Source: Candidatus Latescibacterota bacterium
GTDB taxonomy: Bacteria > Latescibacterota > UBA2968 > UBA8231
Length of the DNA: 64,000 bases
Assembly: GCA_965248265.1 (NCBI GenBank)
Contig: CBDFJF010000001.1
Location: 928,001 to 992,000 of the forward strand
Direction of reading: 5' to 3'
The position numbers and the translations under genes are program-made. The notes below the pieces were generated by a model. That model had not been told where the DNA came from. It saw nothing but the letters and a program-made list of their open reading frames with translations, and searched no databases. Shown here piece by piece: positions 57,707-59,897 of this stretch (positions are counted from its first letter, which is position 1; every line of letters begins with the position of its first letter).

Positions 57707-58546
57707 GTGCGAATCGGACTGATATCAGACACTCATTGTCCGCAGCGATGTCCACACTACCCCGCCACGCTTGGTCAGGTATTTCGTGCAGTCGACCTGA
57801 TCCTGCATGCGGGAGATGTGGGTGAGCTCTGGGTGTTGGAGGCACTCGGCAACATCGCACCTGTTGTTGCTGTCCACGGAAACGATGAGACTGATGAAGC
57901 TCAGCGCCAGTTGCCCTTTGAGCAGATCGTATCAGTCGAGGGGAGGCGGTTACTCCTATCCCACGGCCACGAGACGAGCCAAGAACGGGAGCTCGAGGCA
58001 CGAGCCGGTGACGCCTGGCCCCCGAAGCTGGAGAGGCGCCTGAAACGGGCTAAAGACGCAGATGCGGAGATCTTCATACATGGCCATACCCATATCCCTA
58101 TGTGCTGGACCAAGACTGGACTCACCTTGATCAACCCTGGCGCGATTGCTTCGTGCAACGCAATCTCTCGACAGGTAACCCAGACCGTTGCGATTCTCGA
58201 TATCGCTGGAAATGGGTCACCGCGCGTCCGGCACATCGACCTGTCCAAGCCAGATGCACCGTTTGATCCGCGTTTCGACGTCAAATCCGGCTTCAGGAAT
58301 TCGTTGGCGCGTTTCTCGGAATCGATTGCGGAGCCTGAGATTGAGAATTGCCTGACGCGCGACTGGTTGGATGGCCTCGAGGATTTCGGGGCGTTCAGGG
58401 CATGTTGCCTGCGTCTTTCTCACGAATGTTGGCGTGGCGAGCGACAACAGATCACTGTGCTTGACGTTATTGCTGCTGTCAGGAATGACCCGAAAGTCAC
58501 AAACAGGGACAAGGAAAGGTGTGAAGCCGTGTTCACGGAGATGTGA
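57707..58546 (+). CDS. Metallophosphoesterase (YfcE-like)
   Basis: LISDTH, HAGD, VHGND, HGHTH and INPG. Confidence 0.88.
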   Translation: MRIGLISDTHCPQRCPHYPATLGQVFRAVDLILHAGDVGELWVLEALGNIAPVVAVHGNDETDEAQRQLPFEQIVSVEGRRLLLSHGHETSQERELEARAGDAWPPKLERRLKRAKDADAEIFIHGHTHIPMCWTKTGLTLINPGAIASCNAISRQVTQTVAILDIAGNGSPRVRHIDLSKPDAPFDPRFDVKSGFRNSLARFSESIAEPEIENCLTRDWLDGLEDFGAFRACCLRLSHECWRGERQQITVLDVIAAVRNDPKVTNRDKERCEAVFTEM

Positions 58547-58560
58547 TTACCGCCCCATCC

Positions 58561-58589
58561 TTGACAACGTGCCTGACGCATCGGATATT
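58561..58589 (+). promoter_or_regulatory. sigma70 promoter of the leader-tRNA unit
   Basis: TTGACA, 17 bp spacer, GATATT. The predicted start site is at or near the leader ATG at 58597. Confidence 0.7.
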
Positions 58590-58596
58590 GCGTGGC

Positions 58597-58680
58597 ATGA
58601 GAAATAGCCGCCTTCAGCGTCAGCAACAACAGCAACAGCGAATCCAGAGTTCGTTGGGGCAGCGGCCATCTATGTATTAG
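58597..58680 (+). CDS. Gln-rich attenuator leader peptide MRNSRLQRQQQQQQRIQSSLGQRPSMY
   Basis: 27 codons, 9 of them Gln, with six in a row (CAG CAA CAA CAG CAA CAG) at 58621-58638. It overlaps the alternative hairpins. Confidence 0.8.
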   Translation: MRNSRLQRQQQQQQRIQSSLGQRPSMY

Positions 58681-58702
58681 CACGACTGCAAATACTGAGA
58701 TT

Positions 58703-58743
58703 AAAAGCCCCAGCGGACCTTGAGTTCGTTGGGGCTTTTTTTT
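58703..58743 (+). terminator. Intrinsic terminator (attenuator)
   Basis: Stem GCCCCAGCGGAC/GTTCGTTGGGGC followed by T8, 5 nt before the first tRNA. Confidence 0.88.
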
Positions 58744-58748
58744 GTTCT

Positions 58749-58820
58749 TGCGGCGTCGTCTAACTGGCAGGATGGCAGGTCCTGACCCTGCAGATCGAGG
58801 TTCGAATCCTCGCGCCGCAG
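58749..58820 (+). tRNA. tRNA-Gln(CUG) with C33, CCA not encoded
   Basis: Acceptor stem TGCGGCG/CGCCGCA, anticodon stem GCAGG/CCTGC, loop TC-CTG-AC and T-loop TTCGAAT. Confidence 0.88.
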
Positions 58821-58831
58821 CCGAATATCGC

Positions 58832-58906
58832 TGGGGTGTCGTCTAACTGGCAGGACACCGGGCCTTGGACTCGGGAATCGGGGTTCGAACCCTCGCACCC
58901 CAGCCA
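58832..58906 (+). tRNA. tRNA-Gln(UUG) with C33, CCA encoded
   Basis: Acceptor stem TGGGGTG/CACCCCA, anticodon stem CCGGG/CTCGG, loop CC-TTG-GA and T-loop TTCGAAC. Confidence 0.9.
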
Positions 58907-58958
58907 AATCCGAACTGAAGACACGGTACTGGAGTAATCGGTGCTTACGGAGACTGCG

Positions 58959-59897
58959 ATGTCAACTCAAGATATTCTTGTCCGCGGCGAGCAGCCGGGA
59001 GACGAGAGCCAAATTGACTTGGTCCTCAGCCGCGCATTCGACGGCATGGACGAGGCCAACCTCGTCCGCATGCTGCGGCACAGACAGCCCGGTTTTGATC
59101 GATCCCTGTGTATATGCGCGTTTGTTGGCGACGTCATGGTAGGGTATACCGGCTTCATCCCTTTCGGCATGCGATTGATGGACTCCAGCGTTTCTGCGGT
59201 CGCTGTCGCGCCCGTCGCAGTTGCCCCAGATTTTCAGCGCCGGGGTATCGCCGGCATGATGCTGCGCCGTGGCCACGAAGTAGCACAAGAGGCCGGCTAC
59301 AGGCTCGCCTGCCTCAACGGCCATCCCGACTATTATCCTCGCCACGGCTACATCGCATGCTTCGGCTTCTGCAAGACAATGCTGGATCTCGACGTGTTAC
59401 CCGCGCCACGTATCGAACTGGAGGCCTGGCCTGTACAGGCGGACGATATTGCCTGGTTGATAGGATGTGATGAACGTGAGTGGCATAGTGTCGATTTCAC
59501 CTGGCCGCGAAGCAACGGACTCTGTGAGTGGGCCATCGAGGGGGTCAATGCCGTGATGTGGCGGGCTCGAGACGGGCGACGGGCAGCCTACAGCCTCTGT
59601 CGGCCCGGTCTGCGCGGACCTGGCCGACACCTGGAAACTCTCCTGGGGGACGACCCCGAACTCGTGCAAGAGGTGATTGCCCACATTAAACCTGGAAGAA
59701 TTACGAATCATCCCGCGGGATGGCTTGCGAAAAATGTTCTAAACGAGTCGTGGGCAAAGTGCGAAGCCAATAGCAGTCAGGCGGCGATGGCATATCCTCT
59801 TGTTGACGGCGTGCTTGACCCATATCTTGCCGCCCTCGAATCGGGACAACGTCAAGCGGGCACCTGCAACTGGCCTGTGCCATTCATAATGTGTTGA
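58959..59897 (+). CDS. GNAT family N-acetyltransferase
   Basis: VAPVAVAPDFQRRGIAG and GHPDYYPRHGY. Confidence 0.85.
   Translation: MSTQDILVRGEQPGDESQIDLVLSRAFDGMDEANLVRMLRHRQPGFDRSLCICAFVGDVMVGYTGFIPFGMRLMDSSVSAVAVAPVAVAPDFQRRGIAGMMLRRGHEVAQEAGYRLACLNGHPDYYPRHGYIACFGFCKTMLDLDVLPAPRIELEAWPVQADDIAWLIGCDEREWHSVDFTWPRSNGLCEWAIEGVNAVMWRARDGRRAAYSLCRPGLRGPGRHLETLLGDDPELVQEVIAHIKPGRITNHPAGWLAKNVLNESWAKCEANSSQAAMAYPLVDGVLDPYLAALESGQRQAGTCNWPVPFIMC

Follow-up and report, generated by a model that had tools for sequence, protein, structure and literature searches.

In the present study, we analysed two adjacent tRNA-Gln genes in a 64-kb stretch of the genome of a Latescibacterota bacterium (the stretch is hereafter called the window, and the whole source genome G000). 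Both genes carry C in place of U at position 33 of the anticodon loop (C33), and both are preceded by what we conclude, from sequence comparison, to be a genuine predicted leader-peptide attenuator, conserved though rare, in front of accessory tRNA-Gln genes. Uridine at this position (U33) is the U-turn nucleotide and is near-universal in elongator tRNAs. With a probability of roughly 0.55, we consider the two genes to be functional, attenuated spare tRNA-Gln genes, in which C33 is a tolerated variant spreading in the fast-evolving accessory tRNAs of G+C-rich DNA. The parts of this tRNA cassette are as follows.

58561 to 58589, plus strand: promoter-like site, TTGACA and GATATT with a 17-nucleotide (nt) spacer, sigma-70-like with 10 of 12 matches
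58597 to 58680, plus strand: leader open reading frame (ORF), MRNSRLQRQQQQQQRIQSSLGQRPSMY and a stop codon, with 9 Gln codons (6 CAG, 3 CAA)
58648 to 58661, plus strand: antiterminator segment of 14 nt, AGUUCGUUGGGGCA, complementary to the 5' arm of the terminator
58703 to 58743, plus strand: intrinsic terminator consisting of a 16-pair stem with a T run behind it; 5 nt separate it from the first tRNA gene
58749 to 58822, plus strand: tRNA-Gln(CUG), found by ARAGORN and by the Rfam tRNA model (52.2 bits); loop UCCUGAC (U32 C33 C34 U35 G36 A37 C38), with C33 at 58781 and the anticodon at 58782-58784
58832 to 58906, plus strand: tRNA-Gln(UUG), found by ARAGORN and by the Rfam tRNA model (48.1 bits); loop CCUUGGA (C32 C33 U34 U35 G36 G37 A38), with C33 at 58864 and the anticodon at 58865-58867

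Several findings support this reading. First, the two genes have the features of real glutamine tRNAs apart from position 33. Both score above the gathering score of 29 of the Rfam tRNA model (RF00005), and in the ARAGORN prediction as in the Rfam alignment both have a 7-nt anticodon loop with a CUG or UUG anticodon. A preliminary description of this DNA had claimed C33 in both genes; ARAGORN, the Rfam model and direct reading of 58781 and 58864 agree on it, and both tRNAs thus lack the U33 expected of an elongator tRNA. The U1-A72 pair, G73 and G10 are present in both; these elements belong to the Gln identity list derived from work on Escherichia coli GlnRS and GatCAB, and they are invariant in the eight cassette tRNAs compared below. 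The first gene ends in CCG, not CCA, and the second encodes CCA. No further tRNA gene was found in the window by ARAGORN. According to a published definition, a tRNA array unit comprises at least 20 tRNA genes at a density of at least 2 per kilobase (PMC4758250), and a locus with two tRNA genes in the whole window is not such a unit.

Second, the window genes are extra copies. G000 (7.32 Mb in two contigs, 59.6% G+C) also encodes a housekeeping tRNA-Gln(CUG) with the loop CUCUGGA and a housekeeping tRNA-Gln(UUG) with the loop UUUUGGU, both with U33, so that the window tRNAs, with UCCUGAC and CCUUGGA, duplicate host isoacceptors and differ from them in the loop. Outside the cassette, U33 was found in 31 of 31 tRNA-Gln genes read in genomes of the phylum. 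C33 is thus not the standard of the lineage, and the genes that carry it are not the only tRNA-Gln copies of the genome; the observation stands. Genome-wide, ARAGORN predicts 57 tRNAs in G000, 46 of them of canonical layout, and among these 46 the two cassette tRNAs alone are non-U33, C33 being found in none of the other 44; U8, G53, T54, T55, C56, A58 and C61 are invariant in all 46. Three further non-U33 predictions of 72-91 nt, without CCA, are false positives in our judgement. G000 encodes GlnRS (703 bits against a cut-off of 425.8), and a GatB gene is also present. Because GlnRS scores well above its curated cut-off, direct charging by this enzyme is the likely route for the cassette tRNAs. 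The preliminary description had considered GatCAB alone, as the enzyme recognising U1-A72.

Third, the cassette is rare, and where it occurs its tRNAs are conserved as working molecules. A search pattern drawn from the D arm, variable region and T arm that the two tRNAs have in common, with up to three mismatches allowed, revealed cassette-type tRNAs in 3 of 168 genomes of the phylum, namely G000 and two relatives, G118 and G119, from a second genus represented by three genomes. The same pattern with zero mismatches matched 28 metagenome stretches, including one true cassette on the metagenome contig L163; the other 27 were tRNA arrays or low-G+C contigs without Gln leaders and were rejected. 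A metagenome pattern built from the acceptor and D arm of the first tRNA gave no matches, and BLAST of the cassette against 40 relatives, which was too insensitive, returned housekeeping tRNA-Gln only. Eight distinct cassette tRNAs from the four loci were aligned. All 168 stem cells (21 pairs in eight tRNAs) are paired, with compensatory changes in 7 of the 21 pairs, and the covariation score of 0.401, compared with 0.204 in shuffles, was reached by 0 of 500 shuffled alignments. U1-A72, G73, U8, A14, G18, G19 and the T-loop bases are invariant. The complete stem pairing, the U1-A72 pair, G73 and the common D arm noted in the preliminary description were seen again in the wider alignment, and the intact, compensated stems and invariant bases indicate purifying selection on a working cloverleaf and argue against decay, in line with the preliminary description.

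Position 33 behaves differently from these conserved bases. Positions 32-33 read UC and CC in G000, CC and UU in G118, CU in G119 and UU in all three tRNAs of L163. With C33 in three of the eight tRNAs, it is not a fixed or defining feature of the cassette. C33 in the first tRNA is common to G000 and G118, whereas C33 in the second occurs only in G000 among the four loci; a relative of about 94% identity in sequencing run X5 appears to keep the C at 58864, a tentative result drawn from contig depths. The housekeeping tRNA-Gln(CUG) of G000 matches that of G118 at 72 of 74 positions, and the housekeeping tRNA-Gln(UUG) of G000 matches that of G119 at 73 of 75, whereas the cassette tRNAs of G000 and G118 agree at 70 of 75 and 65 of 76. 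By these comparisons, the cassette tRNAs evolve faster than the housekeeping copies.

Fourth, the region upstream of the tRNAs has the anatomy of an attenuator, with a Gln-codon ORF directly behind a promoter-like site and an intrinsic terminator between leader and tRNAs. The promoter scan found one site where 0.5 would be expected by chance, and the same arrangement recurs at all four loci: TTGAC(G/A) or TTGCGC, 17 nt, (T/G)A(C/T)ATT, 7-8 nt and ATG. In the orthologous loci, the -10 hexamer is TACATT and the -35 hexamer TTGACG or TTGCGC. The end of the -10 hexamer is 7 nt from the leader ATG in the window; this -10-like hexamer 7-8 nt before the start codon was observed at 58584-58599 and at the same place in loci L131, L132 and L163. 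As no room for a Shine-Dalgarno sequence is left between the -10 hexamer and ATG, the leader mRNA is probably leaderless, and the sensor ORF would probably be translated from such a leaderless mRNA. Nine of the 27 amino-acid codons of the leader are Gln codons, with the main Gln run at 58615-58647. Gln-rich leaders are also present in G118 (MRTMYSSTSTQPQRQQQRIQISPGQRVFSI), G119 (MRTREAHSGQRQQRQRVVSPPGWVCPRSLC) and L163 (MSYLETQRQQRQRQRMQHSLGRQVWVC).

The terminator hairpin at 58703-58743 also appears in the minimum-energy folds, and the leader region is more stable than its shuffles (z = -4.45). The duplex between the antiterminator segment and the 5' arm of the terminator has an energy of -23.5 kcal/mol in G000, where 0 of 500 shuffled arms were as good, and this pairing is seen both in the centroid fold and in the fold masked at nt 1-33. 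A strong alternative partner of the terminator 5' arm lies just past the Gln run at four of four loci, despite sequence differences, with energies of -19.5 to -23.5 kcal/mol over the four loci, equalled by 0, 0, 1 and 7 of 500 shuffles. Folding with a masked ribosome footprint, a crude equilibrium test, gave the expected direction with partly negative results: in G000, a stall at the first Gln codon leads to the antiterminator, and later stalls, or a ribosome at the stop codon, lead to the terminator. The preliminary description had supposed that the extra copies are induced when housekeeping tRNA-Gln is lost. The anatomy found here (promoter-like site, leader with nine Gln codons, terminator and conserved antiterminator pairing) fits such induction. 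No Rfam leader family matched at the locus. An Rfam match to NsiR1 at 58693-58743 (25.5 bits against a threshold of 39) was rejected as a mere resemblance to a terminator.

Fifth, C33 is the normal state of a housekeeping tRNA-Gln in the genomes searched of two other bacterial groups. A pattern of the common tRNA-Gln D arm, C33, a YUG anticodon and GGTTC was searched against one genome each of 185,579 species and matched 109 stretches; by ARAGORN, 30 of these lie in arrays of at least 8 tRNAs, 54 contain a single tRNA and 25 contain 2-7. Among the 80 of 109 stretches that were listed, 10 belong to Saccharibacteria, 11 to other Patescibacteria and 11 to Bipolaricaulota, and four listed stretches labelled Thermotogae carry a loop of the Bipolaricaulota type. 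Whole genomes were then searched with a tRNA-Gln covariance model (G168-G170 and G173-G177; loci L361-L365 and L390-L399). The sole tRNA-Gln(CUG) has C33, with the loop CCCUGGC, in both Bipolaricaulota genomes searched, and the sole tRNA-Gln(UUG) has C33 in all six Patescibacteria genomes, where "sole" means sole among the sequence searched, these assemblies being small and possibly incomplete. The loop of the latter, CCUUGGA, is that of the second window tRNA, and in two of the six Patescibacteria genomes both isoacceptors have C33. A tRNA that alone reads CAA cannot be badly impaired, and C33 is therefore compatible with normal glutamine decoding. These housekeeping genes resemble the window genes in their amino acid and canonical cloverleaf; unlike the window genes, they are the sole isoacceptors of their small genomes and hence no spares, and the search for a Gln-rich leader upstream of them was negative. 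Our literature search turned up no description of a natural bacterial C33 tRNA-Gln, nor of this lineage-wide exception to U33.

Other arrangements of tRNA-Gln genes were met in the same searches. Two Chloroflexota genomes, G171 (L360/L366) and G172 (Chloroflexia, L367), have an extra C33 tRNA-Gln beside U33 copies; in G171, a tandem UUG(U33)-CUG(C33) pair accompanies separate U33 genes for CUG and UUG. Upstream of the C33 copies of these two genomes, the search for a Gln-rich leader gave nothing. Elsewhere, Gln-rich ORFs upstream of tRNA-Gln appeared plausible, apart from the orthologous cassette, at L070 and L302 alone and were rejected, as there is no U-run terminator before the tRNA. At L070 (6573-6743; a metagenome-assembled genome of Kofleriaceae), a small ORF ending in ALQQQQQRR and a stop codon ends about 30 nt upstream of a C33 tRNA-Gln(UUG) with the loop CCUUGGC; ORF and tRNA are separated by a hairpin that lacks a U run, and the upstream DNA is partly masked. 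At L302 (1704-1905, minus strand, a viral contig), a mini-ORF, MRFSVLVQRQQQQQR and a stop codon (QRQQQQQR), lies 8 nt before a tandem tRNA-Gln(CUG)-(UUG) pair in the gene order of the window cassette; both tRNAs have U33, and no terminator is present between ORF and tRNA.

Sixth, C33 is frequent in the accessory tRNAs of phages and arrays and rises with G+C content. In viral contigs, the C33 tRNA-Gln pattern matched 56 stretches and the U33 pattern at least 120. The 120 viral loci listed were picked by a U33 tRNA-Gln, which leaves their 900 non-Gln tRNAs unbiased at position 33; C33 was counted in 42 of them and A33 in one. With a canonical-layout filter, 26 C33 and one A33 were counted among 603, and in the same set deviations were found at U8 in 36, at T54 in 13 and at T55 in 15 of the 603. 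Position 33 is thus not uniquely labile in phage tRNAs, and its changes are almost all to C. A statistic for position 14 was discarded since ARAGORN varies the D-stem length. By G+C content of the locus, C33 among the non-Gln tRNAs was distributed as follows.

Locus G+C below 40%: 6 of 283
Locus G+C 40-50%: 14 of 396
Locus G+C 50-60%: 11 of 136
Locus G+C above 60%: 11 of 86

The median locus G+C was 0.577 for viral loci picked by a C33 tRNA-Gln, compared with 0.450 for those picked by a U33 tRNA-Gln. In cellular tRNA arrays, 95 of 379 non-Gln tRNAs have C33, a rate inflated by the choice of arrays for one C33 tRNA-Gln. It is high in the isotypes Glu (15 of 28), His (7 of 14) and Gly (15 of 41) and low in Arg (2 of 57), Lys (2 of 26) and Trp (1 of 17). 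The arrays are loci between L021 and L129 with at least 8 tRNAs (e.g. L021, L055, L057, L077, L087 and L108), and their hosts include Actinomycetes, Acidobacteriota, Myxococcota and Acidithiobacillus. No mention of position 33 of tRNAs was found in the available parts of four papers on such tRNAs (PMC10264068, PMC12482277, PMC12803027, PMC4758250).

Herein, we propose that the cassette would be transcribed from its own promoter through the leader-peptide attenuator. When charged tRNA-Gln is in good supply, transcription would stop at the terminator. When it is scarce, ribosomes would stall on the Gln codons of the leader, the antiterminator would form, and the spare tRNAs would be made, processed and charged, probably by GlnRS. 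C33 would be a tolerated, nearly neutral pyrimidine substitution of the U-turn nucleotide that tRNA-Gln accommodates well; it does not define the cassette and need not be an adaptation. Several points weigh against this proposal. The antiterminator is the best masked fold in one of three stall states in G000 and in G119 and in none of three in G118 and L163. In adjacent genes, one and the same conserved position has changed from U to C twice, as it seems independently, which is more than simple drift would predict. C33 in the first tRNA has persisted, as it is common to G000 and G118, which belong to different genera. The rise of C33 with G+C is a trend only and may be a lineage effect, as related sequences are not independent. 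Lastly, 100 of 379 array tRNAs are non-U33, compared with 36 of 379 deviating at U8 and 3-23 of 379 at T-loop positions, which hints at a cause specific to position 33, although the choice of these arrays for one C33 tRNA-Gln biases the count.

Adaptive evasion, the idea of the preliminary description, we regard as an unlikely alternative to tolerance. With C33 and the loop differences at 32, 37 and 38, the spare tRNAs would be poorly attacked by a nuclease of the anticodon loop, or a modifying toxin, that requires U33, and the attenuator would deploy them once the pool of housekeeping tRNA-Gln had been destroyed. The attenuator would sense the decoding of Gln codons, not glutamine itself, which suits the loss of tRNA; the spare tRNAs are unlike the housekeeping ones throughout the anticodon loop; and C33 is over-represented in phage (42 of 900) and array tRNAs (95 of 379) relative to the other canonical tRNAs of G000 (0 of 44). 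Several reports are consistent with evasion: it has been proposed that phage tRNAs escape host tRNases because their anticodon loops are altered (PMC10264068), tRNA arrays have been called putative antidefence systems (PMC12803027), the collateral activity of Cas13a cleaves at uridines of uridine-rich anticodon loops, including that of tRNA-Gln (PMC11042736), and the cleavage site of CdiA-CT from E. coli 536 lies between positions 32 and 33, with no test of C33 mentioned in the available part of that report (PMC11724271). However, two characterised anticodon nucleases are not hindered by U33C. The gamma-toxin of Kluyveromyces lactis acts on tRNA-Glu, tRNA-Lys and tRNA-Gln, and the kinetics with which it cleaves a U33C stem-loop are those of the wild type (PMC2275089). 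For colicin E5, any pyrimidine on the 5' side of the GU site suffices, and a U-to-C variant is cut as well as the wild type (PMC1635277). Moreover, C33 occurs in three of eight cassette tRNAs, with three U33 tRNAs standing behind the same type of attenuator in L163; it is the housekeeping state in Patescibacteria and Bipolaricaulota; its rise with G+C points to a compositional cause; and no nuclease was identified in G000, where no search aimed at tRNase genes was made. As C33 is not conserved within the cassette and is no rarity among tRNA-Gln genes, the main argument for evasion falls away, and the suggestion of the preliminary description that C33 confers resistance to a nuclease or modifying toxin found no direct support. 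A wider form of the same idea, in which the Gln leader would detect a cut or modified tRNA-Gln pool and switch on C33 escape isoacceptors, and in which C33 in phages, arrays and the cassette would be one widespread solution for escape, seems to us slightly more doubtful still.

Functional tuning, whereby C33 would for example make the decoding of CAG and CAA slower or more selective, or alter recognition by GlnRS or modification of the loop, so that the induced pool acts differently, appears quite improbable. When tRNA-Gln is bound to E. coli GlnRS, its U33 is paired with base 37, and C33 could pair there with G37 in the second window tRNA. A yeast U33C tRNA-Gln, a laboratory mutant with a phenotype, was constructed to mimic inefficient charging or poor decoding of CAG, and its authors consider U33 a possible GlnRS determinant (PMC3664417); this work, together with the GlnRS encoded in G000, would be consistent with tuning. 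Orthologous cassettes nevertheless use U33 tRNAs in apparently the same role, and as a C33 tRNA-Gln is the sole isoacceptor elsewhere, any defect must be mild.

Decay, in which the cassette tRNAs of G000 would be sliding to pseudogenes and C33 would be one of several mildly damaging changes, is considered very unlikely. Within the cassette family, the window tRNAs score lowest with the Rfam model (52.2 and 48.1 bits, compared with 56.7-62.9 bits for the orthologues), each has an extra G-U pair (the wobbles G10-U25 in the first and G30-U40 in the second), the first has CCG for CCA, and both evolve faster than the housekeeping copies. Against this stand the stem pairs, intact in eight of eight cassette tRNAs with compensatory changes, the retention of all other universally conserved bases and the intact attenuator. 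The relative in run X5 appears, from contig depths, to keep C at 58864 and yet to repair the G-U pair, and scores of 48-52 bits match those of genuine G000 tRNAs, e.g. a tRNA-Ser at 48.2 bits. A sequencing or assembly error at 58781 or 58864 has a negligible probability: nothing was found in its favour beyond the apparent metagenomic origin of G000 (many foreign tRNA contigs occur in the same runs), whereas Logan contigs of runs X1 and X3, which probably represent the source sample and hence are not independent support, show 0 differences over 58400-59400 (1001 bases), and C33 is also present, independently, in the first tRNA of the orthologous cassette of G118.

The proposal of attenuated spare tRNAs with a tolerated C33 can be compared with known systems. 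Leader-peptide attenuators are known from amino-acid operons, as in the trpL, hisL, pheL, leuL and thrL types. The cassette likewise has a short ORF in which one codon family abounds and a terminator, and it has a predicted antiterminator pairing that would exclude the terminator and overlaps the 3' part of the ORF; unlike these systems, it would regulate not biosynthetic enzymes but the very tRNAs by which the sensor codons are read, and its mRNA is probably leaderless. In our literature searches, we found no description of a leader-peptide attenuator in front of tRNAs reading its own codons. Among eukaryotes, C33 occurs in cytoplasmic initiator tRNAs, and other effects of base 33 are cited in PMC3664417. 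Such natural or engineered exceptions at position 33 share with the cassette a non-U33 and yet usable tRNA, although they belong to another domain of life and serve other roles. The accessory tRNAs of phages and arrays are, like those of the cassette, extra isoacceptor copies diverging mainly in the anticodon domain, and C33 recurs among them (PMC10264068, PMC12803027, PMC4758250); in contrast to arrays of 20-40 genes, the cassette has two genes for one amino acid, is chromosomal and is predicted to be under a codon-specific attenuator. The cryptic tRNA operon of Anabaena shares with it normally silent spare tRNAs that are induced under translational stress (PMC8421152), and differs in being a long plasmid-borne array for many amino acids, with no leader-peptide sensor mentioned in the available part of that report (PMC8421152).

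U33 is taught as one of the invariant bases of elongator tRNAs, and tRNA-Gln breaks this rule repeatedly, in three settings: as the sole tRNA-Gln of small-genome phyla, among phage and array tRNAs, and in a rare cassette apparently gated by Gln codons. Should C33 be no more than tolerated, tRNA-Gln might serve as a natural system in which to ask what the U-turn uridine is needed for; if it is adaptive, it might mark a general escape route from tRNA-directed toxins. An attenuator governing the tRNAs that read its own codons would constitute a feedback loop on tRNA supply.

One further gene may belong to the same transcription unit.

58959 to 59897, plus strand: GNAT acetyltransferase gene, 312 amino acids (Acetyltransf_9, E = 5e-13)

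It begins 52 nt past the second tRNA, and no terminator is predicted between them (none after 58739); the gene may therefore be co-transcribed with the tRNAs and under control of the attenuator, and its membership in the unit is uncertain. The X5 contig of about 94% identity keeps the tRNA-GNAT order, and G118 has another gene downstream of the cassette. The window cassette is flanked by genes for a metallophosphoesterase, the GNAT acetyltransferase and a PhyH dioxygenase, and the flanking genes differ between the cassette loci. When eight flanking proteins of G000 were compared by tblastn with L029, L131, L132, L163 and L070, a sorting-domain match was the only result, which indicates that the cassette sits in different neighbourhoods. 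No phage genes were found near the chromosomal cassette.

Outside the window, a tRNA-Arg-like gene with an eight-base loop was observed in G000 at C2:1057786-1058029, in which ARAGORN reads a four-base anticodon, TTCT. It adjoins a tRNA-His without CCA, and the pair resembles the Arg(TCT)-His pair at C1:2268060-2268448, suggesting that it may be a degenerate duplicate at an integration site.

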